NCBI GenBank assembly: GCA_965243395.1
Contig: CBDEUS010000002.1
Location: 512,001 to 576,000, forward strand
Length of the DNA: 64,000 nucleotides
Source of the DNA: Gammaproteobacteria bacterium
GTDB taxonomy: Bacteria; Pseudomonadota; Gammaproteobacteria; UBA4575
Direction of reading: 5' to 3'
The notes beneath the pieces are model-generated. The model had not been told where the DNA came from. It did not search any database and was given only the letters and a program-made list of their open reading frames with translations. A program made the position numbers and the translations under genes. Shown piece by piece: positions 4,092-31,341 of this stretch (position 1 is its first letter; the number at the start of each line of letters is the position of its first letter).

Positions 4092-4517
4092 TTACAAATC
4101 ACGATTACCATCTTTATCTTCATCATTGTTCATATGAGACAATTCACTCAAGACGCGATCGGCTAACACCGTACACAACTGCTTGCCGCGCTCATTGAGA
4201 TAGAGATGTTTGGTTTTACTATCAAATTCATCATCCACTTCTTCGATTAAATCAAATCCGGGTAAACGCAGCCGGGTCTCTCGGTCTCGATCGAACGAGT
4301 ATTTACTTAAGTCCCCCACATAACGCTTGGTGGTGGTCAATGATTGAGGGGCCATGGCGTCGTTGATTTCTTTGCGTGTAATGCCTTCATGCAAGCTGAT
4401 TAAAAATAATATGTCCAAGTGATGCGCATTGAAGGTTTTGTTGACAAACTGTTGGGCGGCATGAATACATCCACGTAACTTTGCAATCGCAATCAACTGT
4501 TCCTTCGTTAACATCAA
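4092..4517 (-). CDS. MarR-like winged-helix DNA-binding protein
   Basis: ILFLISLHEGITRKEI helix pattern and wing DEFDSKTKHLYLNERGK. Confidence 0.65.
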   Translation of the reverse strand: MMLTKEQLIAIAKLRGCIHAAQQFVNKTFNAHHLDILFLISLHEGITRKEINDAMAPQSLTTTKRYVGDLSKYSFDRDRETRLRLPGFDLIEEVDDEFDSKTKHLYLNERGKQLCTVLADRVLSELSHMNNDEDKDGNRDL

Positions 4518-4627
4518 TAATTTATTTCATCAATAATGTGTATTGGTGCACAGTGAACTCGGTCCCAGTGGACTTAGTCCGTATTCGGACTTTAAAAACT
4601 TACGAAGTGTTTGTAGATTTTTAATGA

Positions 4628-4658
4628 AGTATGTGTCTAGACCTTAGGCTAGAGTCAA
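4628..4658 (-). promoter_or_regulatory. MerR-type promoter with 19-bp spacer, pointing at the wHTH gene
   Basis: Minus strand TTGACT-ctagcctaaggtctagaca(19)-CATACT with TCTAG/CTAGA dyad. Confidence 0.55.
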
Positions 4659-4688
4659 TTCTTTATTTAAATTAATTACCCGTACTAA

Positions 4689-4710
4689 ACTCTAGACTCA
4701 ACTACAGAGT
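4689..4710. promoter_or_regulatory. MerR/ZntR-like operator dyad
   Basis: ACTCTAGACTCAACTACAGAGT, a 22-bp ACTCT...AGAGT dyad. Confidence 0.45.
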
Positions 4711-4931
4711 TTTATCGAACTTAACCAATTAAAAGATAAACGATTACGTTTAAACGTTTTTCAACGTAAAGTGGTAGTAGTATTCGTTATAAATAATGCG
4801 ATATTTCTTACCGAATAAAATTATTGGTGAAGTCAATTTATTTGCAGCTCATGCTCTTTGCTGCATTCAAATAGTTAGGGGACTCAATAATTAGCTAAAC
4901 GAATTTCAAAAAAAATTAAAAGGTATTAATT

Positions 4932-5225
4932 ATGGGATTATTTTTTAAAGACGAAAGCCACAAGATTATGTGGAACATGGGACAAAACTTAAAGGCACTA
5001 CAGCGACACGAAAACGGTGGATCTGATTTATTAAGAAGAAGCACAGTAGTTTTGATATCTGAGCAAAGAGAACAGCTGAAAAATTTAGGTATCAATAATG
5101 AAGACATCCAATCTTACTTTCGTAGGAGAGGCAAAAAAGAAGATATTTATTTTGATGCTTACTTAGAAGAATGGGATGAACACCACGAGATGTTGTTACA
5201 GGCAAGGGAGCAAGCTAAGTCATGA
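4932..5225 (+). CDS. Hypothetical protein
   Basis: 97-aa ORF with AAGG RBS, first gene of a tightly packed operon. Confidence 0.6.
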   Translation: MGLFFKDESHKIMWNMGQNLKALQRHENGGSDLLRRSTVVLISEQREQLKNLGINNEDIQSYFRRRGKKEDIYFDAYLEEWDEHHEMLLQAREQAKS

Positions 5226-5824
5226 AATTTATATTATGGCTAATGACATTACTGAGTATTCCATTAATGCTGCTAAATGCATTTGGAGGAATTATTTCCG
5301 GCATTTGGTTAGCAATACTCGGTGAGTGGGGAACTATCGGATATGGTTTTGTTTTTATGATAGGCGGAATATTGTTGTTAGGAATTCCGCTTTTACTCGC
5401 AATGATCTTCATGCCGCCAGCTATTTATTTTACAAACAAAGGCTATAACTTTATAGCTCACATATTTACGTATTTAGGCGCTTTATACACTGCAGCAGTA
5501 ATAACAGCTTGGTCAATGTTCATTTTAATCTTCTTCGTAGATGGTACTGGGTATAAGGATTTCATACCGACTTTAATTTGGACATACAGTGTTGCAACAG
5601 CTCCCCTCGCTTACATGGCAAGTAAAGAGCAAGACAACGAATACACAACATTCACAACATTTTTTAGTCAGCTCGCATATTTATGCGTAGTTTTGCTGGT
5701 AGCACTTGTAAGTGAAGTCACGACTATTGATGCCATTATTGTGTTTGGCTTCATAATGTTTATAGGATCGATTGTGCAGATGGTGCTTGTAACAGCAAAT
5801 ACAAAAGAGCGGCAATTGTATTAA
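5222..5824 (+). CDS. Multi-pass membrane protein
   Basis: About 6 hydrophobic segments; ATGA overlap with the upstream gene. Confidence 0.75.
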   Translation: MKFILWLMTLLSIPLMLLNAFGGIISGIWLAILGEWGTIGYGFVFMIGGILLLGIPLLLAMIFMPPAIYFTNKGYNFIAHIFTYLGALYTAAVITAWSMFILIFFVDGTGYKDFIPTLIWTYSVATAPLAYMASKEQDNEYTTFTTFFSQLAYLCVVLLVALVSEVTTIDAIIVFGFIMFIGSIVQMVLVTANTKERQLY

Positions 5825-8819: not shown

Positions 8820-8920
8820 TTTTCCGCTATTGACCGAAAGGAGACAAAAAATGGGACTCAGTTGATTGGATTTAAATAAATACAAGTTCAAAATGTCTGC
8901 TTACGACCCAAAGCGGACAT
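8820..8920 (+). repeat. Doublet of 28-bp sites (inverted relative to the main array) with 45-bp spacer
   Basis: ttttccgctat-tgaccg-aaaggagacaa and atgtctgctta-cgaccc-aaagcggacat. Confidence 0.75.
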
Positions 8921-9103
8921 TCGGAAAAAACATAAAGGACTGGTGGTCCTCAAATCATTACTACTTATTTACATTCTAAACTGTAGGTGAAACCAACTAG
9001 CAGGCCGAATATTTAAAAATAGCTTTCAGCATATATCTAGATTTATAGTTCGAAAAAACTGAAAGATTACGAAGATTTAAACGTATTTTAAACTATTGTT
9101 AAC

Positions 9104-9207: not shown

Positions 9208-10167
9208 GTGAATAAATTTTCGAATATTATTTTTGTCTTAGAAGAAGAAATCGATAATACCGCAGCATTTCAACAAGCGATTTCTTTGGCAAAAAATCAT
9301 CAAGCAATGCTTACTGTGGTTGGTACTGTGTATATGTCAAGCATTGATCAGAAAAGTGGTCGTAACAACGAGCTTGTACCAATTCTAACTAAGCAGAGAC
9401 AAGGGCAACTAGAGTCTCTTGTGAATGGAATAAAAATCTCTGACATTGAGATCAATACCAAAGTTCTCATTGGGCGACCGTTTATTGAGATCATTCGTGA
9501 AGCGATCAGACAGGAAGGAGATTTGATTATAAAATGTGTTAAAAACACTAGTTCTATGGCTCGTTATTTATTCTCTGCTTCAGAAATGAAGTTGCTACGA
9601 AAATGCCCATGCCCAGTATGGTTAGTAAAATCAACACAACAAATTGGTGATCGAGAAATACTGGTTGCATTAGATTATCAACATGAAGACGCAGAGAACG
9701 ATGATCTCAATCAACGCTTATTAGAACTTTCTATTTCATTGTCATTAGCTGGTTATGGGGAGCTACATATTGTACACGCATGGAATTTACCTTATGAAAG
9801 CTATTTACGTGGTCCGCATATGTCCTACACAGATTCAGAAGTGGATGATATGGCTCATCAGGAGAAGTCGAGCCGTACAAAATGGTTATCGGATGTAGTT
9901 GAGAAATCTTGTAAGTTATACGGTGAAGAAACGATAAATTTCCTTAAACCGCAGCTACATCTCGTACATGGTAATGCAAAGCACATGGTACCGAAAATTG
10001 TAAATGAAATTGGTGTAGAACTAGTTGTGATGGGAACAGTGGGCCGCGCAGGTGTTCATGGTTTATTAATAGGCAACACAGCAGAGAATATTCTTAACCA
10101 ACTCGATTGTTCAGTATTAGCAATTAAACCAGAAAATTTTGTCAGTCCTATAATGATCGACGACTAG
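9208..10167 (+). CDS. uspE: Tandem-domain universal stress protein (UspE-like)
   Basis: LLRKCPCPVWLVK and LVVMGTVGRAGVHGLLIGNTAENIL. Confidence 0.9.
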   Translation: MNKFSNIIFVLEEEIDNTAAFQQAISLAKNHQAMLTVVGTVYMSSIDQKSGRNNELVPILTKQRQGQLESLVNGIKISDIEINTKVLIGRPFIEIIREAIRQEGDLIIKCVKNTSSMARYLFSASEMKLLRKCPCPVWLVKSTQQIGDREILVALDYQHEDAENDDLNQRLLELSISLSLAGYGELHIVHAWNLPYESYLRGPHMSYTDSEVDDMAHQEKSSRTKWLSDVVEKSCKLYGEETINFLKPQLHLVHGNAKHMVPKIVNEIGVELVVMGTVGRAGVHGLLIGNTAENILNQLDCSVLAIKPENFVSPIMIDD

Positions 10168-10232
10168 TAGTAATAAATTTGGTTAGATGAGTGTTACTTT
10201 TTCAGAAGTTTATAATCTTCAATAACATGAAT

Positions 10233-10260
10233 ATGTCCGTTATTGGCCGTAAGCAGACAT
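10233..10260 (+). repeat. 28-bp site (inverted relative to the main array)
   Basis: atgtccgttat-tggccg-taagcagacat. Confidence 0.75.
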
Positions 10261-10349
10261 TAACGACACAATTCGTGTATGGAAAACAGTGCAAGCAGTA
10301 ATTGTGATATTCCAAAGCATCACACCTATGATGCTCCAAACCGAAAGTA

Positions 10350-11246
10350 TTAGATTTCTTCTAATAACCATTCTTGAAAACATTTAATTTTCTTGCGATG
10401 AGCATAGGATTCAGGATATACAAGTGTATATCTTCCACCAAGAGGAATTTTTTGTTGATAGGGTGCAACTAAACGATTAGTCGTAAGATCCTCGTCAGAC
10501 AAACTTATTCGACCCAGTACAATTCCAGCTCCATCTATTGCAGACTGCACGGCATGGTCCGGTTCACTAAAATGTGGCCCTAAATCAAAATTAATATCTG
10601 TATAACCTGATTGTTCAAACCAATATTGCCATCCTGGTTTACCTAAAAACGTCTCAATGGAATCATCATGTATAAGGGTAAAACTTTTAAGATCTTCAAT
10701 TTTTTCAAGCTTACCTTTTTCTTTTATTAATAATGGGCTACACATAGGTGTTATATGTTCTTCAAAAAGCTCAATTTTTTTCAGGCCTGGATAGTCATCG
10801 GGACTGAATCGAATTGCCGCATCAACGGACTCCCGGTGAAAGTCTACAATTCTGAGGCTTGATGAAATATGAAGATTGATATTTGAATATGCGGAATTGA
10901 ATTTTTCTAACCTAGGACTAAGCCACTTTGCGGTAAACATTGGCGCGGCACTTATACTTAGTTCTTCTCTACCTTCATCTCCTACAATTTGTTCAATCGC
11001 TTGATCAAGCTGTAAAAAACCATCACTTAATCTTGGCAATAATCTTTTAGCGGTATCAGTGAGGAATAATTTATTAGGTTGTCGCTCAAATAATTGAGCA
11101 TCTAAATATTCTTCTAGGGTTTTAATCTGTTGGCTAATTGCACCAGGGGTGACATGCAGTTCTTCAGCAGCTTTAACAAAACTTAAATGTCTAGCCGCGG
11201 CCTCAAATGAACGTAAAGCGGTAAGTGGATAGTTGCGTCTAGTCAT
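10350..11246 (-). CDS. LysR regulator, GcvA subfamily
   Basis: PLTALRSFEAAARHLSFVKAAEELHVTPGAISQQIKTLE; likely start MTRRNYP. Confidence 0.9.
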   Translation of the reverse strand: MTRRNYPLTALRSFEAAARHLSFVKAAEELHVTPGAISQQIKTLEEYLDAQLFERQPNKLFLTDTAKRLLPRLSDGFLQLDQAIEQIVGDEGREELSISAAPMFTAKWLSPRLEKFNSAYSNINLHISSSLRIVDFHRESVDAAIRFSPDDYPGLKKIELFEEHITPMCSPLLIKEKGKLEKIEDLKSFTLIHDDSIETFLGKPGWQYWFEQSGYTDINFDLGPHFSEPDHAVQSAIDGAGIVLGRISLSDEDLTTNRLVAPYQQKIPLGGRYTLVYPESYAHRKKIKCFQEWLLEEI

Positions 11247-13890: not shown

Positions 13891-13991
13891 TTGTCCGCTA
13901 TTGGCCGGAAGCAGACAAATTATAGGATGAGTCAGGTTGGAATCAATGAACTACAAACTTAAAATGTTCGTTTTAAGTCAATTGCGGACAT
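13891..13991 (+). repeat. Doublet of 28-bp sites with 45-bp spacer
   Basis: ttgtccgctat-tggccg-gaagcagacaa and degenerate atgttcgtttt-aagtca-attgcggacat. Confidence 0.7.
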
Positions 13992-23447: not shown

Positions 23448-24167
23448 TTAATGTTCCCACATGGTTCGCTTCTTGCCTTTTTCTTCTTTAATCTTGGCCC
23501 CTGTTAGTTGACTCCATAAGTTGACTCCCACCATTACTTCAATATGAGTGGTCGGTACTTGGAATTTATCTAAAGATTTAGTTGATGATTTATGTGGCAT
23601 GACAAAGGACCACATATGAAGCGCCCCGCTTTTTCTTTCTGCTAACACAGATTTAAAAAATGCATGAGGGACAGGGAGTTTAATGGGACTATCATCAGTC
23701 GTTTGAATGGTTTCAATTACGAGATCGAAATCAAAGATTGGTCCGCTGATAACATACACTTCGTATACGTCATCCAGGTCATTTAATTTTCTTACGGCAT
23801 TTTCAAGTCGCTTCCACACACCATTATTAAAACCCTGTTCTTGTGGGCACATATTAGAAAGCAAAAACGTTTCACTGTCTTGTAAAACCTCTTCATTCTG
23901 ATTCGCACTGGCTACAAGATGGCCTCGCGAGAAACCGGAACCTACATATTGTGCTTTATCCACTCGAAATAATTCTGGGATACGAAAGTCCGATCTAAAA
24001 TTTTCAGAACGTTCAACGTCTATCGTACCTCTATCCACTATTTCTAATGCCCATTTAGCTTGTCGATAGTAATAGGAGTACCCGACGATATAGTGTCTGT
24101 TAATTAGAATCTGGTCTGCCGCCGGCATTCCATAGCGAGTTTCAGCCCATTGACTAGGATCAAACAT
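23448..24167 (-). CDS. DNA/RNA non-specific endonuclease (NucA/EndoG family)
   Basis: SRGHL, TFLLSNMCPQ, FNNGVWKRLE; starts 20 bp after the last 28-bp site. Confidence 0.9.
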   Translation of the reverse strand: MFDPSQWAETRYGMPAADQILINRHYIVGYSYYYRQAKWALEIVDRGTIDVERSENFRSDFRIPELFRVDKAQYVGSGFSRGHLVASANQNEEVLQDSETFLLSNMCPQEQGFNNGVWKRLENAVRKLNDLDDVYEVYVISGPIFDFDLVIETIQTTDDSPIKLPVPHAFFKSVLAERKSGALHMWSFVMPHKSSTKSLDKFQVPTTHIEVMVGVNLWSQLTGAKIKEEKGKKRTMWEH

Positions 24168-24359
24168 AAATTCCTCCTAATACTTGAATGTCCGCTTTCG
24201 GCCAATAGCCGTTTTTTTACACTGTCGAATATTTTATAAATCTACAAACGTAGGAATTATCACTATGAATGGTAATTCGTAGTAACTCTATTTCACAATA
24301 TAAAATAACAATTTTGGGTACAATAACATTTAATTTTATTTACATGGATGTAAATCTAA

Positions 24360-24740
24360 ATGAAAAAACTATTACTACTAATACTGTTATTACCAAGTAT
24401 TGGATTAACAGCTAATAATGGATCTGGGAATAAGTTATTAGAGCAATGTAGCTATGCGGATGCATTGATTCATGGCAAAAAGATAAATGCTGATTTAGGT
24501 GAAGATTATGCGTTTCTTTGTCTTGGCTACGTTTCAGGTGTCTATGACGCATTATTTATGAGCAATCAAGTATGTGGCCCTAATGTAGCAGATTGGAACC
24601 AAGCTAGAATAGTTTATAACTATTTAATCGAAAATTCCGAGATACTTCATTTTGATCGACATGTTCTCACCAAAATTGCATTAAAAAAAGCATATTCTTG
24701 TAACAGCAGTCAGACTGAATATTTATCTAGCACTGACTAG
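24360..24740 (+). CDS. Rap1a/Tai-family immunity protein
   Basis: GNKLLEQC ... CLGYVSGVYD ... VC.P ... YL..N.E.LH ... AL..AY.C. Confidence 0.75.
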   Translation: MKKLLLLILLLPSIGLTANNGSGNKLLEQCSYADALIHGKKINADLGEDYAFLCLGYVSGVYDALFMSNQVCGPNVADWNQARIVYNYLIENSEILHFDRHVLTKIALKKAYSCNSSQTEYLSSTD

Positions 24741-24774
24741 AAAAAGTCTGCTTTCGGCCAATAGCGGACAAAAA

Positions 24775-25431
24775 TTATTGTATATAGTTATTAAAAACTA
24801 CAAATATTAAACTCGCTTTTTTCAATTTTGTAACTTCATATTTATTCCCATCATGAACGGCAATCAGCGCATGCAACCCCGCTTCACTAATCCTAATATC
24901 ATGTTTGTATATTCCTTCTACACCAAAATCAATTTCACCTAAAAGTGTGCAGGGCTCGCTAAAATATGCAAGCATGATGAAATTCTCTTCATCATCTTCA
25001 AGACCTCCAGATAGAAACATATCTTTTCCAGCATCGTAACCAAAAGTGCTCAATCTTAAGTATTTAGTACTTGCTGGCTCAATATTTAACCCTTTGTTAT
25101 ATTCGCTCTCAATATTCGCGGCAGAATAACCCACAATCTCTGAACCAAATCTCTTAAGATCAATACTTGGTTTAGACTCTAGACTCATATCAATCATCCA
25201 ATATTTGTCTTTCAAGGGTGCACCATAAAGTGAACCTGGAATAATACCCAACTCAAGAAAAAGAGTATCTGGTGTATCAAAGTTATCTGAAACAACTTTT
25301 GTTTGTTTAAGCTTTAAATGGACTAATTTTGATGAATCTGAATTTTGATTTGCTGAAAAACCTAATAGCGAAATTAGTACTAAAATCGCCGTCATCCATC
25401 CAATCAATATTGATATTTTCTTATTCAACAT
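24775..25431 (-). CDS. Cassette ORF, membrane-anchored hypothetical protein
   Basis: Fills the interval between two sites; N-terminal TM. Confidence 0.7.
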   Translation of the reverse strand: MLNKKISILIGWMTAILVLISLLGFSANQNSDSSKLVHLKLKQTKVVSDNFDTPDTLFLELGIIPGSLYGAPLKDKYWMIDMSLESKPSIDLKRFGSEIVGYSAANIESEYNKGLNIEPASTKYLRLSTFGYDAGKDMFLSGGLEDDEENFIMLAYFSEPCTLLGEIDFGVEGIYKHDIRISEAGLHALIAVHDGNKYEVTKLKKASLIFVVFNNYIQ

Positions 25432-25478
25432 TTTTGTAATTTAAATGTCCGCTTTGGGTCGTTAGTAGTCATTTTATA

Positions 25479-25760
25479 CTAGTATTTTTTATTGCAGTTC
25501 CAACAATTCTTATTCGGCAAGCGAAAATCAAATATATTATTACTTCTCCAAATTTGCTTTTTGCCACAGTCATCACATTTCAATGTGAACATATAATAAA
25601 CAAAATATAAGCTATAGATTATTGTTACATAATAGTGCCACCCTATTTCTCCAAGCCAATTTTCATAGTTTGAAATAGGTTTTTGTAACACCCTATGTAT
25701 CACAACAAGTATTACGAGAACAGAAAGTAGAAATAAGAATTTTGTTCTATGACTGAACAT
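25479..25760 (-). CDS. Cassette ORF, membrane protein with zinc ribbon
   Basis: 2 TM helices; CDDC and CWNC. Confidence 0.65.
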   Translation of the reverse strand: MFSHRTKFLFLLSVLVILVVIHRVLQKPISNYENWLGEIGWHYYVTIIYSLYFVYYMFTLKCDDCGKKQIWRSNNIFDFRLPNKNCWNCNKKY

Positions 25761-25848
25761 GAATAATTTTTGTCCGCTTTGGGTCGATAGCAGTCATTTA
25801 GTATTTATATTTTTTGTACATTATACATTTATCTTTATAGCTACTCTC

Positions 25849-26495
25849 TTATTTTGTGCTTTGAATTAACTTACTAACTAAAACACCAAGCACTCCAATA
25901 ATGTAAAAGGCAATTGGAATAATTAGCCAGCCATACCATGTGCTTAATAGGTTTGATAAATAAGATCCAATTATACTTTGTGGTGCAAGTTTTATAGAAA
26001 TTAATCCAACAAGCATGATAACAACTACAAGGATAGCTACAGTAACATCACCACCTGTTACTTTCTGCACAGAGGCGTGCTGTGGATTTATCTTTTTTAA
26101 TCTACGCTTTATATACTGACCTATTAAATAAACTAGCCCACAAATGCCTAGTAATATAATCCCAGCAATTAAAAGTGCTATGCCCGCTCCCACATCACGC
26201 TTCTTGGAGATGTATATAATATTATTTTTTTCTCTAACTGATAAATTGTTCTCTTCAGCTATCTTATAAATTGCTTCCTTCCAAGGCATGCACTCAAAAT
26301 TAATGGGTACTGATTTATTTATGGATGAGTCCATTTTTATTTCAATCACAGCAAAATCTGCTAATAAAGCGTAAGCTGATTTTAATTTTAAATTTTGAAA
26401 ACTAAATCGAAGTCTCCGTCATCACAATTAGCCCACGCCAAGGAACTTACAAAAAATGTAAGAAAAATTAAAATAAAAAGTCTATTGCTTCTCAA
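25849..26495 (-). pseudogene. Cassette ORF, STN-like domain fused to a membrane region, apparently frameshifted near 26400
   Basis: Signal peptide from TTG 26495; one extra T restores VFQNLKLKSAYALLADFA, similar to the PilQ NFQD...IADF segment. Confidence 0.5.
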
Positions 26496-26530
26496 TATAA
26501 TTAATCTGTTTTCGGCCAATAGCGGTCATA

Positions 26531-27088
26531 TTAAAATTCTTTTTCTTTTAGATAACCAGATGGACAATGTTTGTCTTCAATACGTGTATCACAAACATAA
26601 ACAGTCCTAAACTTATCAACCCATTTGTTCAATTCTGTAGCAGATACATTTTTTTGCCAAATTTTAAGTAGATGATAAGTACTATCTTTTCCTTTTATGG
26701 CTAGATTTAAAATTTGAGCTTTTGAATTGTCCTCTTTTAAGCAAACTGTACGCCAAAGCAAAGACTTATAATTTTGGTTATCTATTGGGTCTAATTCTAT
26801 AGATTCAAAAGATTTACATGCTTTTTTGCCCGGCTTATCTTGCTCTTTTCTCATTTTTGAAGGTTTTTTATTAGACCCATATCTAATATTTACTGCATAA
26901 GCATCTCGCATACCGCTTTCTTTACTACGCCATAGCATACTTCTAAATTTTCCTTCTTTCTTTGTAAGGATTTCCCATTTTTCAGAGCTTAATTCATAGG
27001 GGACAATTAAATTCTCACCTTCGTAAAATTCTGATGAATATACATTTGTAAAAATCCCAATCAATAAAATGAGTATTACTAATTTCAT
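26531..27088 (-). CDS. Cassette ORF, exported hypothetical protein
   Basis: Signal peptide; stop 1 bp from the site. Confidence 0.75.
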   Translation of the reverse strand: MKLVILILLIGIFTNVYSSEFYEGENLIVPYELSSEKWEILTKKEGKFRSMLWRSKESGMRDAYAVNIRYGSNKKPSKMRKEQDKPGKKACKSFESIELDPIDNQNYKSLLWRTVCLKEDNSKAQILNLAIKGKDSTYHLLKIWQKNVSATELNKWVDKFRTVYVCDTRIEDKHCPSGYLKEKEF

Positions 27089-27169
27089 AATGCCGCCTTC
27101 GATGAATAAATTTAGTAGAACGGATAACTATCTTATAATGTCCGCTTTGGGTCGTTAGCAGACATTAAA

Positions 27170-27592
27170 TTACCACGGCCCTCTTAAACTTATATCAACA
27201 CCGTCTCCCGATGGTGTCATTTTAATTGTATACGCCACTTTTCTGCCATCAGTCCTTTCTACAACCCATGCTTCGGTTATCGATGTTGAATCTTTTGTCA
27301 ATAAGCGTGTTTCAATTACTTTACCAGTGGATTGCCCCTCGCTTGATTCAGCTTGTTTAATTAGATTTTCTATATCTTTCTTTAAGGTGGCATCAGCTAC
27401 AGTTGGAGATTCAGTACCAAGCAGGTATTTTTCCATTGCCACCGAACCACCACCAATATCTTTAGATGACCATCTATAAGGTGATCCATCTTGTTCTAAT
27501 TTTTTGTTTAAATCATTTACGGCATTATGGACTGAGGTATTTGCACAACCAAAGAATGTAAACATTGTTAAAAGTATTAATAGTAATTTCAT
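27170..27592 (-). CDS. Cassette ORF, lipoprotein
   Basis: GAGG RBS, MKLLLILL...FFGC lipobox; track start runs into the site. Confidence 0.75.
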   Translation of the reverse strand: MKLLLILLTMFTFFGCANTSVHNAVNDLNKKLEQDGSPYRWSSKDIGGGSVAMEKYLLGTESPTVADATLKKDIENLIKQAESSEGQSTGKVIETRLLTKDSTSITEAWVVERTDGRKVAYTIKMTPSGDGVDISLRGPW

Positions 27593-27633
27593 AAGCACCT
27601 CAATTAAATAAGCTCTCTTTCGGCCATTAGCGG

Positions 27634-27975
27634 TCATTTCTTAATATGAAAGTTAAAAGTATATCTTGCACGAAGTACAACTTTCTCAGAGTCATAAGAA
27701 TATTCTGATAGCTCAATTACGACCGTGTCCTTTCCGATATAATTGTTCATTGGTTTATATCTGAATATGTGTTCATAGGTTTTTTTATTCCAAATAATTT
27801 CACTTATTTCAGAGTTTTGTGCTTGTTTAACAATTTCGAGCGCTTGCTCATCACCAATACTGCCAAGATTTTTCTCATAGGTTTGATTAATATTCAAATT
27901 AATCTCAACTTTAGGTGCGCACCCAAAAAAAGAAACTAGAGTAAAAATTAATACTATTAGTAAGTATTTTTGCAC
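27634..27975 (-). CDS. Cassette ORF, lipoprotein
   Basis: GTG start after the site, FFGC lipobox; TGA stop lies inside the next site. Confidence 0.6.
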   Translation of the reverse strand: MQKYLLIVLIFTLVSFFGCAPKVEINLNINQTYEKNLGSIGDEQALEIVKQAQNSEISEIIWNKKTYEHIFRYKPMNNYIGKDTVVIELSEYSYDSEKVVLRARYTFNFHIKK

Positions 27976-28100
27976 AACTGAAAATGCCCACTTTGGGTCG
28001 TTATTGGACATTTTTTTCTTGTATGTAATTGATTCCAACCTACTACTTCTCATTTTATGACTGCTTTCGGCAAATAGCGGACATATTAGGAATGTAATAT

Positions 28101-28397
28101 TCAATCAGCATTATAATCTTGCGGATATGGATTAGGCTTTTGGATTTTATCGCTGTAAATCCAAGAACGCATTAGTTTTGGGATAGCACTCGTGTGCAAA
28201 ACTGATTCACTTTCTTGATAAGAAAATCTCAGTGCTATAGCAAATCCAAGTACTGGCAGTATCCATATAATAAATATTCTAAGTATCTTAACTGGTGTTG
28301 AAATATTTTCTTCGAGTAGAGTAATTAAAGAAGCAATTAAATTAAAATAAACTATGAATAATATGATACAAATGGATACGATTATAAAAATGTCCAT
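28101..28397 (-). CDS. Cassette ORF, small membrane protein
   Basis: 2 TM helices, IWILPVLG. Confidence 0.65.
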   Translation of the reverse strand: MDIFIIVSICIILFIVYFNLIASLITLLEENISTPVKILRIFIIWILPVLGFAIALRFSYQESESVLHTSAIPKLMRSWIYSDKIQKPNPYPQDYNAD

Positions 28398-28500
28398 TAA
28401 GTTTTCACCTATTTACTTAATCTTTGTACACTTATCATCTATATGTTCTTAATATGATGTCTGCTTTCGGCCAATAGGGGACATTCATCATCCTAACTCA

Positions 28501-28962
28501 TCATGCAGTTGATCTTTCAGCAAACTCTCTAAATCGATTCATAAATGTGAGCGTCTGTTTTTTGAATACACTAGGCATGAAAATGCTCATAAGCTTGACG
28601 ACAATTCCTGAGCATTTGTATTCAGCGTTGAGAACCCACCTAGTTTTATTATTATCAACTTTGAAAAAATGGTTCTCAATGAGATTCCAAATGCCATCTG
28701 CTTCATAGGTTGCAGAAAATTCGTTGGGGTAATTGTGGGTTTTAATGGTCTCAATCATTTCGATTTCTCGTCCACCCATCTTATGAATTTGTTTTGATTG
28801 TGATCCTACCTGACGGGATTCGCCACTTATTTGTTCAAAGTTTATAAGGTCTGGCTGCCATTTGGCTAGATTATTTGGATCTAGAAATAATTCGATGACG
28901 CGCTCTCTCGGCAGTTTGATTTCGATTTCAACTTCATAACTTTTGGAGGTTTCTATTGCCAA
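28501..28962 (-). CDS. Cassette ORF, SRPBCC/START-like protein
   Basis: IEIKLPRERVIELFLDPNNLAKWQP ... FKKQT..FM..F..FAE. Confidence 0.85.
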   Translation of the reverse strand: MAIETSKSYEVEIEIKLPRERVIELFLDPNNLAKWQPDLINFEQISGESRQVGSQSKQIHKMGGREIEMIETIKTHNYPNEFSATYEADGIWNLIENHFFKVDNNKTRWVLNAEYKCSGIVVKLMSIFMPSVFKKQTLTFMNRFREFAERSTA

Positions 28963-29001
28963 TTAATTGTCTCCTTTCGGCCAATAGCGGACATTTGAAA
29001 A

Positions 29002-29403
29002 TTATGAGTGATCAAAAATCTCGATGTCACCATTTTCAAATATAGCTATTATAATTTTATCTCTAATTCCACTTGTAACCCCGACATGAAATTGTAAGTA
29101 AATAACCCTACCTCCTAATTCTTCATAACCACCTTCATAGGATAATTGAATACCGTTATGATAAGCACTTGGGATTTCATTTAAAATTATTTGAGGTATT
29201 TCGATTGTTTTACCAAATGCTCGTACAGTAATTTCTGAAAACAATCGTTTGGTATCTTTCTTTGCCTTAACGACAACAGGGCCTGATTCATCAATCGCTT
29301 CAGAGAATATATGAATGCTAGTAAACGGTAGTACGCCTTCTCGTGAAGAGTATGTGGCTGACATTATTAGATACAAAATCAGGAAAACCATTACTTTTCT
29401 CAT
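29002..29403 (-). CDS. Cassette ORF, exported hypothetical protein
   Basis: Signal peptide; fills the interval. Confidence 0.7.
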   Translation of the reverse strand: MRKVMVFLILYLIMSATYSSREGVLPFTSIHIFSEAIDESGPVVVKAKKDTKRLFSEITVRAFGKTIEIPQIILNEIPSAYHNGIQLSYEGGYEELGGRVIYLQFHVGVTSGIRDKIIIAIFENGDIEIFDHS

Positions 29404-29472
29404 AACCTATCCTTAAATATATCTAGTGAAAAAAGAATATTGAAATGTCCGCTTTGGGTCGTTAGCAGTCAT

Positions 29473-30048
29473 TCAATCGCTATTTATACTATCTCTCCAC
29501 TTCCATGGAGGGATTGGGTCTTCTGTTTTCCATAGTCCTACTTTTTTTGACTTCGCCCAGTATTCTTTACTATTTAAATCTTTCTGCCTTTCTTTTGGTA
29601 ACTGCTTGTAAAATCTTCGCATTACCCATGCATGACCGCATACGACCATTTTTGCATTTACATTTACCCATTCATTATCTGATTCACTTTGTACATATAT
29701 AGTTGCCAACATTCGCTCATATTTATCATAACCATGTGACTCTATTCGAATATGACGACCACCAATTAATCGAATCAGGCCATATTTAGCATTGTCACCC
29801 CAAGGCTGACCATCTTCTGGGCAATCGATTGCGTATAGCCTTACTTTAGACTTACTCCATTCATCACCTACGATAATTGTATCTCCATCAATTACATGAT
29901 GGACTTTTTTTGTCTCGTAGCTTTTTTTATTTGATATTAGTTCTTTATCTTCATCTGATTTTGGTTTTTTATCTTTATCAGACTTGAGGCTAGTTATTAT
30001 GACTAGAGCAATTAAAAATACTACAAATAAAAGTATTCCTAATTCCAT
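29473..30048 (-). CDS. Cassette ORF, thermonuclease (SNase-like)
   Basis: VIDGDTI, VRLYAIDCPE, DKYERMLA, GLW, PPWKWR. Confidence 0.9.
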   Translation of the reverse strand: MELGILLFVVFLIALVIITSLKSDKDKKPKSDEDKELISNKKSYETKKVHHVIDGDTIIVGDEWSKSKVRLYAIDCPEDGQPWGDNAKYGLIRLIGGRHIRIESHGYDKYERMLATIYVQSESDNEWVNVNAKMVVCGHAWVMRRFYKQLPKERQKDLNSKEYWAKSKKVGLWKTEDPIPPWKWRDSINSD

Positions 30049-30154
30049 TTTTTTAGCTTACATTTGTTTAGAGAAATATGTCGTTTTGAACCATTAGTGG
30101 ACATTTATGAATTAATGGGATTGTGCTGTTGTCATTCGGTGATTTCGTCGATAC

Positions 30155-30517
30155 TCATTTACCGTCACCACATCTGCCCCATTCTCTATAAACTTTTCCA
30201 TTCTTTGGTGAAATAAAAGCAACATCAAATAAGTTTTGTGAGTTAGAAACAATCACACAACCATGTAACACACCAACTTTCCCGTAATAGTCTCCATCAA
30301 AGTCTGATTTTAGAAATACTATTGCTGCATCATTTTGACCTACACCAGCAATTTCAATTAACAGACTCTTTCCAACTTCGTATGAACAGTGTTTTGTTTG
30401 ACTACTATCCTCATGACATTCTTTACCAGAAATCACAGCACTAAATGTTTTTTCTTCACCAAAACATGGTGCCGAAAATAAAATTAAAATGATAAATATA
30501 AATTTATAAATTTTCAT
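30155..30517 (-). CDS. Cassette ORF, exported hypothetical protein
   Basis: Signal peptide, paired Cys. Confidence 0.7.
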   Translation of the reverse strand: MKIYKFIFIILILFSAPCFGEEKTFSAVISGKECHEDSSQTKHCSYEVGKSLLIEIAGVGQNDAAIVFLKSDFDGDYYGKVGVLHGCVIVSNSQNLFDVAFISPKNGKVYREWGRCGDGK

Positions 30518-30572
30518 TGATTTAGTCCATTTTAATTAAAGATAATTAATGTCCGCTTTCGGCCATTAGCGG

Positions 30573-31103
30573 TCATTCTGTGGAAGACACTAATTCACTA
30601 CAATCCATCACCTCTTTTGCAACGATTTGTGTTGGTGAGGTTGTTCGCTCAACGACTAAGGCAGGCTTCTCTTCTTTGCTATTAATTATAAATACACGAT
30701 ACGTATGCCCTGGATTAGCATTTAAATTAACATCGGCATTACAACTCAACGTTATCTGCTTATACTCTGGTTCAGAAAAACCGCCACCTAATTTAGCTAT
30801 TATGCAAAAAGGTAAAAGAATTAAACACCGAAGTTCAGGATTTTTTCGATCTTTATGCTTTATTTTATCTGAATTTGGTTCTACTTCTATTTGATGAATT
30901 ACATTTCCATTAAAGGAAATCTCAAAGTTTCCAGACTTTGATTGATAAGACTTGTTTTTATTAAAAGGCTTATCATTAATACTGACATTTTCCACCTGGA
31001 CATTAATTGTTGATTCTTTAAATAATTTACCTTTTAAGCTAGGCCCTGATGACGTTGAACATCCTGATATAAAAATTAGAGTTGTGATAACAAAAATTTT
31101 CAA
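30573..31103 (-). CDS. Cassette ORF, lipoprotein
   Basis: ISGC lipobox; TGA stop lies inside the site at 30549-30576. Confidence 0.75.
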   Translation of the reverse strand: MKIFVITTLIFISGCSTSSGPSLKGKLFKESTINVQVENVSINDKPFNKNKSYQSKSGNFEISFNGNVIHQIEVEPNSDKIKHKDRKNPELRCLILLPFCIIAKLGGGFSEPEYKQITLSCNADVNLNANPGHTYRVFIINSKEEKPALVVERTTSPTQIVAKEVMDCSELVSSTE

Positions 31104-31189
31104 AATTTGAAACTTAATTATGTCCGCTTTGGGTCGTTAGCGGACATTCGAGCACACATAATATATACGGTCAAAATAGATAGAACATT

Positions 31190-31264: not shown

Positions 31265-31341
31265 TGGTGGGCCCGGTAGGACTCGAACCTACGACCAAAG
31301 GATTATGAGTCCTCTGCTCTAACCAACTGAGCTACAGGCCC
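31265..31341 (-). tRNA. ileX: tRNA-Ile2 (anticodon CAT, lysidine type)
   Basis: GGGCCTGTAGCTCAGTTGGTTAGAGCAGAGGACTCATAATCCTTTGGTCGTAGGTTCGAGTCCTACCGGGCCCACCA; position downstream of rpoD as for E. coli ileX. Confidence 0.88.

Follow-up and report, generated by a model that had tools for sequence, protein, structure and literature searches.

The window analysed here, a 64-kb stretch of DNA (C2:512001-576000), comes from the genome of an uncultured gammaproteobacterium (2.58 Mb, 38% GC, 100% complete), and between positions 24188 and 31147 it holds an array in which small open reading frames (ORFs) are separated by copies of a 28-bp repeat with inverted arms around a short centre. We refer to the repeats as sites, to an ORF together with its bordering sites as a cassette, and to the two main kinds of site as the G class (centre GGGTCG) and the C class (centre CGGCCA). 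The features of the array, counted from the first letter of the window, are as follows.

24188..24215, + strand: C-class site (CGGCCA), right arm degenerate; at the 3' extreme of the array as read in gene sense
24360..24740, + strand: cassette ORF of the Rap1a immunity-protein family; the only + strand ORF of the array
24744..24771, + strand: C-class 28-bp site
24775..25431, - strand: cassette ORF, 218 aa, without a Pfam family
25445..25472, + strand: G-class 28-bp site (GGGTCG)
25479..25760, - strand: cassette ORF, 93 aa, without a Pfam family
25770..25797, + strand: G-class 28-bp site
25849..26349, - strand: cassette ORF, 166 aa, without a Pfam family
26502..26529, + strand: C-class 28-bp site with a degenerate left arm
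26531..27088, - strand: cassette ORF, 185 aa, without a Pfam family
27138..27165, + strand: G-class 28-bp site; homology with a cassette of the related genome G004 begins exactly here
27170..27592, - strand: cassette ORF, 140 aa, with a signal-peptide-like N-terminus; homologous cassette in G004 at 73% DNA identity
27610..27637, + strand: C-class 28-bp site with a degenerate left arm
27634..27984, - strand: cassette ORF, about 116 aa, without a Pfam family
27984..28084, + strand: composite junction, the only complete one of the array (G-site 27984-28011; linker 28012-28056, 45 bp; C-site with centre CGGCAA 28057-28084)
28101..28397, - strand: cassette ORF, 98 aa, without a Pfam family
28457..28484, + strand: C-class 28-bp site
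28501..28962, - strand: cassette ORF of the Polyketide_cyc2 family; 69% DNA match to C1:872327-872566, which adjoins another array
28967..28994, + strand: C-class 28-bp site
29002..29403, - strand: cassette ORF, 133 aa, without a Pfam family
29445..29472, + strand: G-class 28-bp site; homology with a staphylococcal-nuclease (SNase) cassette of the related genome G011 begins here
29473..30048, - strand: cassette ORF of the staphylococcal-nuclease family; homologous cassette at another locus in G011 at 76% DNA identity
30073..30099, + strand: degenerate 27-nt site with centre GAACCA
30155..30517, - strand: cassette ORF, 120 aa, without a Pfam family
30549..30576, + strand: C-class 28-bp site
30573..31103, - strand: cassette ORF, 176 aa, without a Pfam family
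31120..31147, + strand: G-class site at the 5' extreme of the array as read in gene sense; a tRNA-Met gene lies 117 bp away

An initial annotation of this DNA had described 15 copies of the repeat in the interval, sorted into discrete centre classes, with mixed left and right arm variants, and bordering gene cassettes, and these descriptions hold. Its 28-mer pattern has 14 matches in the window at no more than two mismatches, against none in 100 shuffles; at up to four mismatches there are 14 copies between 24188 and 31147, every one on the + strand, to which the degenerate 27-nt copy at 30073 is added. The copies and the counts of their centres all match, with GGGTCG six times (25445, 25770, 27138, 27984, 29445 and 31120), CGGCCA seven times (24188, 24744, 26502, 27610, 28457, 28967 and 30549), CGGCAA (28057) and GAACCA (30073) once each, and the ORFs sitting between the sites. 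The full pattern occurs 108 times in the genome, with 99 of these copies in 18 clusters, and a 22-nt core pattern gives 41+57 genome matches compared with 3+3 for a reversed-pattern control. For a larger sample the class was called from a G or C centre within one mismatch at 222 sites from this genome and from eight loci of relatives; 89 belonged to the G class, 101 to the C class and 32 to neither, and since the sites fall mostly into two classes the centre is constrained. The classes differ at position 18 as well (T in the G class, A in the C class), and the difference spans positions 12-18, while positions 13, 14 and 16 are near-invariant across both classes. Left and right arm variants are combined freely among the sites. 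Single sites were also considered as possible hybrids of a G-type left and a C-type right arm, produced when a linker is lost; C6 is found in 24/55 single and 11/46 composite C sites, and about half of the single sites have class-typical arms. The inverted symmetry covers 9 bp per arm, and a 9-10-9 layout fits the sequence as well as the 11-6-11 layout does.

The meaning of the two classes becomes clear from their positions. In related genomes the usual junction between cassettes is not one site but a composite made of a G-site, a conserved linker and a C-site, and in this genome and the eight loci of relatives a composite opens with G in 45 of 46 cases and closes with C in all 46. The two members lie 73 or 83 bp apart, with a linker of 45 bp or sometimes 55 bp. 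The array of the window has one complete junction (27984-28084), the 101 bp of which recur at 75-90% identity in many relatives; its other internal junctions retain one half, of either class. Sites run opposite to the genes, the longer ORF being the gene-sense one in 123 of 134 inter-site intervals, and when the ends of these 134 cassettes are read in gene sense 72 have a G site 5' and a C site 3', 18 are C/C, 15 are G/G and 9 have the reverse order C/G. The fixed G-then-C order of composites and the excess of 5'G/3'C cassettes therefore make the classes positional rather than alternative pools: G and C are the 5' and 3' border types of each cassette and the two halves of one composite junction, so that the observed unit is G'-ORF-C' joined to its neighbours through composite and linker. 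The initial annotation had read the two centres as two compatibility pools in which a cassette could be excised only with a neighbour of the same class. Two discrete, conserved centres do exist, as that idea demands, but a canonical cassette has both classes, each at its own fixed end, the classes do not partition the cassettes, and we regard the idea as very nearly untenable. One composite with an inverted G-class site as its second member, in place of a C-class site, was seen at 8961-9061 of locus L175 (G012:C1:15001-33000).

In a consensus of 30 linker copies the best-kept blocks are TTGGAA and, 17 nt further on, nAAAAT, the last two bases of which are the first two of the G' site. The linker of the window composite reads TTGGAA, 17 nt and AAAAAT on the minus (gene) strand. 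A promoter-pattern scan of L175 gave seven hits in composites, all at this same linker position; the total of promoter-like hits at L175 is not above that of shuffles, and the argument for a promoter therefore rests on positional conservation. We predict that the linker holds a sigma-70-like promoter pointing through the G' site at the next gene.

The genes between the sites are small and diverse (GNAT, glyoxalase, OsmC, GFA, DUF1428, HxlR, SNase, Rap1a and many without a family), no recombinase is found among the genes inside arrays, and only six homologous pairs occur among the 134 cassettes. The content of a single locus, between pgeF and clpB, is graded across 12 genomes of the genus from empty through a lone site to several cassettes. 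No site is present there in G001, G002 and G003, one degenerate site in G008 and G014, and a lone G site with its linker directly after the pgeF stop codon in G006; G011, G004 and G005 have a single C-gene-G cassette, G000 has five sites around some four cassettes, and in G012 the stretch is 3.4 kb long. G000 and G012 have no cassette in common there despite flanks that are 87-92% identical. Two cassettes of the window were found at other loci, in G011 (76% identity) and in G004 (73%), and in both the homologous stretch runs from the site 3' of the gene to a point about 25 bp upstream of the start codon. Sharing of cassettes across phyla was limited to three weak protein matches of 35-44% identity. 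Contigs from metagenome runs with site-to-site joints were considered as possible excision products and rejected; the short side of the joint was only 20-30 letters long, with a stretch of undefined sequence between the sides, and they were read as contigs of other arrays matching the shared sites. Three of the runs (X5-X7) cover no more than the tRNA.

We favour the reading that the 28-bp repeats are the recombination sites of a cassette system that is not an integron, served by an enzyme acting in trans, and we give it about an even chance of being correct. We infer a mechanism in which the sites would be double-stranded binding and crossover sites, with two inverted arms around an asymmetric centre, on which a site-specific recombinase not encoded beside the arrays would act in trans. 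Exchange between like sites (G x G or C x C) would then excise or insert a whole cassette and preserve the G'-ORF-C' order. The enzyme might be non-resident, might belong to an unrecognised family, or might be XerC/XerD working on an unusual site.

The repeats are imperfect palindromes, and the initial annotation had named a role as an RNA hairpin as the alternative to recombination. Within each class the two positions of each variable stem pair (6/23 and 4/25) change independently of each other (Fisher p 0.71, 0.08, 0.77 and 0.79), and complete 9/9 pairing is found on the repeat strand in 5/89 G sites and 22/101 C sites and on the gene strand in 21/89 and 13/101. Compensatory pairs are seen in another repeat family of the same genome, element E (described below), so covariation is detectable in this genome where it is present. 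The arms behave as two separately constrained half-sites and not as a compensated hairpin, and with paired positions varying independently they are unlike a maintained hairpin. No match to the sites, the composites or the alphaproteobacterial triple hairpins (see below) was obtained with the covariance models of Rfam 15 at E-values up to 1.

These data bear on a more specific proposal, that the sites are RNA-level insulators in which an mRNA is ended or stabilised by the C' hairpin, transcription starts anew from the linker promoter, and the next 5' end is capped by the G' hairpin. The fixed polarity relative to genes and the placement of the linker promoter for transcripts starting inside G' would suit such a device, and the C6/A23 variant of the G class (37/89) would form a G-U pair on the gene-sense strand. 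The T6/G23 variant of the C class (52/101), however, gives a C-A mismatch on that strand, full gene-strand pairing is infrequent and shows no covariation, and the sites are not followed by a T-run on the gene strand, where a terminator scan also misses them. What is conserved across phyla is sequence and not structure, and no Rfam family matches. We consider insulators improbable.

Among the closest known systems are integrons and clusters of attC sites lacking integron-integrases (CALIN), which resemble the arrays in their same-direction, mostly single and small accessory genes of diverse families, in the conserved site at each junction, in the existence of several loci without a linked integrase and in the fast turnover between relatives. 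The attC sites of integrons are imperfect palindromes of 57-141 bp conserved in structure rather than in sequence, whereas the sites here are 28 bp long, conserved in sequence and without compensatory pairs, and form no long folded palindrome. They also come in two positional classes with a promoter-bearing linker, many junctions having their own predicted promoter in contrast to the single Pc of an integron, and no IntI-type integrase was found among the four of five tyrosine recombinases that were scanned.

Several observations weigh against the reading that we favour. Arrays have a C site at one end and G plus linker at the opposite end, which is not expected from simple one-site integration, and locus L176 contains two identical composites whose flanks differ on both sides, an arrangement that fits a mobile repeat equally well. 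Neither a crossover point nor a circular cassette nor a breakpoint at strain level was seen. Because the cassette homologs are 68-76% identical and the site is conserved everywhere, the start of homology at the site is partly trivial, and at this divergence the boundary of a recurring cassette would be coarse evidence only. The gene content is no more encouraging: genome-wide there is no Y1 transposase, resolvase/serine recombinase, IS110, rve or DDE_Tnp_1 gene, none of the four tyrosine recombinases scanned (both Xer-like ones and two phage-type ones) reaches the cut-off of 265 of the integron-integrase model, and site-rich relatives have few tyrosine recombinases, three in G011 (76 sites) and two each in G004, G007 and G009 (24-39 sites). 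The conclusion of the initial annotation that another recombinase is implied therefore finds no support in gene content, the listed families being absent and the relatives having only two or three tyrosine recombinases.

The genome encodes five tyrosine recombinases, namely XerD, XerC and three phage-type integrases. With the integron-integrase model the Xer-like pair scores 131-135 bits and the two phage-type proteins 40-46 bits, and the Xer-like pair passes the XerD and XerC cut-offs. One phage-type integrase (C2:155029) was examined as a candidate and set aside; it is present in 3/56 genomes of the family and does not track the sites. In the complete genome G019 the locus L272 (G019:C1:1244001-1262000) has an array flanked by two paralogous, divergent tyrosine recombinases of about 378 aa (4459-5598 and 9695-10831, 47% identity); one of the two genes points away from the first G' site in the way that intI does from attI. 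This pair was likewise rejected as the cognate enzymes; its only relative elsewhere adjoins a tRNA with no site nearby, and the two were read as ordinary island integrases.

It could instead be that the resident XerC and XerD act on these sites, as host dimer resolvases do on the dif-like sites of plasmids and integrating elements. The sites have the 28-bp length of dif and pdif, inverted arms around a short centre and a possible arm-centre-arm layout; XerC and XerD are the only site-specific recombinases found in the genome besides the three phage-type integrases, both xer genes lie 2.5-3.5 kb from small arrays, and the two tyrosine-recombinase matches of G004, G007 and G009 are taken by analogy to be the XerC/XerD pair. 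The dif site of the genome itself, at C1:959290 near the maximum of GC skew, agrees by inspection with the site arms at 4/11 and 6/11 positions, which bears out the earlier statement that the arms are unlike those bound by XerC/D. In pdif modules neighbouring sites stand in alternating orientation, in contrast to the 14 array sites on one strand and the uniform arrays genome-wide, and two fixed classes with a linker are foreign to dif and pdif. Site-free genomes of the same family also carry XerC and XerD. Taken together we think it quite improbable that these are Xer substrates.

The main alternative compares the sites with repetitive extragenic palindromic (REP) sequences, bacterial interspersed mosaic elements (BIMEs) and REP doublets forming hairpins (REPINs). 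The 28-mers and the G-linker-C mosaic would then be a selfish or structural repeat in tolerant, fast-changing regions, with turnover through homologous recombination or island traffic. In its favour, the sites are short extragenic imperfect palindromes in about 100 copies, the two unit classes and the conserved linker with its motifs are reminiscent of BIME mosaics, the arrays have no linked recombinase, and both the identical composites of L176 with different flanks on either side and the lone site with linker in G006, which has no cassette, would fit. BIME and REPIN units are inverted pairs, whereas the sites here form no inverted doublets, and their stems lack covariation and compensatory maintenance. 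The copies are tightly clustered (99/108 in 18 clusters) instead of being spread through core operons, are uniformly oriented to genes (123/134) in a fixed G-then-C order, and keep the whole 28-mer across bacterial classes, which is unusual for REPs. The Y1 transposase (PF01797), to which the REP-associated tyrosine transposase (RAYT) belongs, is missing from this genome and from 13 of the 14 genomes examined in the genus, occurring in one. REP super-families of several phyla, some without a dedicated transposase, are described in the part of PMC3733652 consulted, which speaks for the alternative; inspection against the same part reveals neither an unpaired GTAG nor an unpaired CGTC tag at the sites, which speaks against it. 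On this evidence a REP/BIME-like origin appears unlikely to us, though a good deal less so than insulators. Neisserial dRS3 repeats are short palindromes that bound mosaic, hypervariable and mostly non-coding intergenic blocks and are targeted by a phage integrase. Palindromes thus bound blocks in both systems, but the blocks here are genes and no enzyme was found. The dRS3 repeats and intergenic mosaic elements are named in the same portion of PMC3733652, the text of which, figures aside, does not contain the sequence of the present site. Defining features of integrons and CALINs, of Xer/pdif modules and of REP/BIME elements were tested for and found to be lacking in the repeats.

The distribution of the sites extends well beyond the window. 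They are present in all 14 genomes of the genus, and of 24 genomes sampled from the family 20 contain the motif, in as many as 127 copies. An exact 24-mer scan over one genome per species found at least 134 loci, spread over Alpha-, Beta- and Gammaproteobacteria and a small number of other bins, a sample biased by its seeding from exact pattern matches. Among the matches listed, the cross-class loci have the same 9-bp stems and loops of a few recurring, ordered types, and those from Alphaproteobacteria include many Pseudolabrys-like metagenome-assembled genomes of 55-63% GC; this agrees with the palindrome being common in Rhizobiales, as we presume it to be. The composite of the Alphaproteobacteria has three hairpins at a spacing of about 45 bp, with the loops GGGTCA, ACCCCG-like and GTGCCA in that order and genes antisense to the sites. 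The sole recurrent family among the neighbour genes of 80 cross-phylum loci is an ABC substrate-binding protein, and no recombinase recurs. The motif is found in two viral contigs. On plasmids the gammaproteobacterial composite has no match, and the alphaproteobacterial triple hairpin has partial matches (77-94% identity over 33-75 nt) on nine, from Pantoea, Cronobacter and Duffyella, in stretches without annotation. Word searches of the literature returned no description of the site and two of its 12-mers were unmatched in full text, although sequences given only in figures, or in papers beyond those searched, could escape such searches.

Two further candidate explanations of the sequence and orientation of the sites were rejected. 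The ATG of the site is in frame with at least 60 open codons' worth of amino acids (60 aa) in just 3/89 G and 1/99 C sites and does not serve as a start codon, and with 61 sites co-directional with replication and 36 head-on in the genome of the window there is no rule linking orientation to replication. In the complete genome G019 site orientation changes with the half of the chromosome, most sites lying on the minus strand between 0.6 and 1.4 Mb and on the plus strand between 1.6 and 2.7 Mb, which suggests that arrays there are mostly co-oriented with replication, a rule that is loose in the window's own genome.

Element E, met above as the repeat family with compensatory pairs, is about 60 nt long and has two hairpins that compensatory changes maintain; its start often coincides with the stop codon of the gene before it. 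As inward-facing inverted pairs it often brackets arrays elsewhere; none flanks the arrays of the window. The genome has 33 profile matches to it, of which 14 lie no more than 400 bp from a site; it has no Rfam match and is confined to low-GC gammaproteobacterial relatives. Examples are the following.

C2:997730-997792: element E
C2:999556-999622: element E
L172, 3579-3644: element E
L172, 6008-6065: element E

The surroundings of the array in the window include a tRNA-Met gene and a second array on the opposite strand.

8820..8920, - strand: second array, composite of a G-site (8893-8920) and a C-like site (8820-8847)
10233..10260, - strand: second array, C-class 28-bp site
13891..13918, - strand: second array, C-class 28-bp site
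31265..31341, - strand: tRNA-Met

A 51-bp copy of the 3' part of this tRNA-Met is found at C2:500399-500449, at a distance of 43 kb and next to a phage-type integrase ORF (C2:500560-501858), and in the nearest relative, G012, both flanks are joined by other DNA and the island stretch is lacking. The array therefore stands at the tRNA-proximal end of an integrated island, and one or more islands inserted at tRNA-Met appear to make up the whole stretch, which includes both arrays of the window and a DISARM-like locus. A gene for a non-specific endonuclease (Endonuclease_NS, 23448-24167, - strand) adjoins the array, with the Rap1a-type cassette (24360-24740) on the opposite strand.

Beyond this genome, it is possible, though we hold it doubtful, that a second cassette platform is widespread in Proteobacteria, built of two short, sequence-conserved site types and promoter-bearing linkers (in Alphaproteobacteria a triple hairpin), moved in the absence of an integron integrase by XerC/XerD on a non-dif site or by an unrecognised enzyme family, and overlooked as REP-like. 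The work provides handles on the system in the form of two 28-bp sites, a predicted transcription start and a pgeF-clpB locus in empty, lone-site and filled states. Should the REP/BIME-like explanation be right, the repeats would nonetheless form a new family that spans phyla, made of ordered palindromic mosaics whose relation to genes is fixed. If the sites are exchange points, gene shuffling in the style of integrons would not be bound to IntI and attC, and small marine and soil Proteobacteria would harbour a large, unrecognised reservoir of mobile cassettes, each of a single gene and with a promoter of its own.

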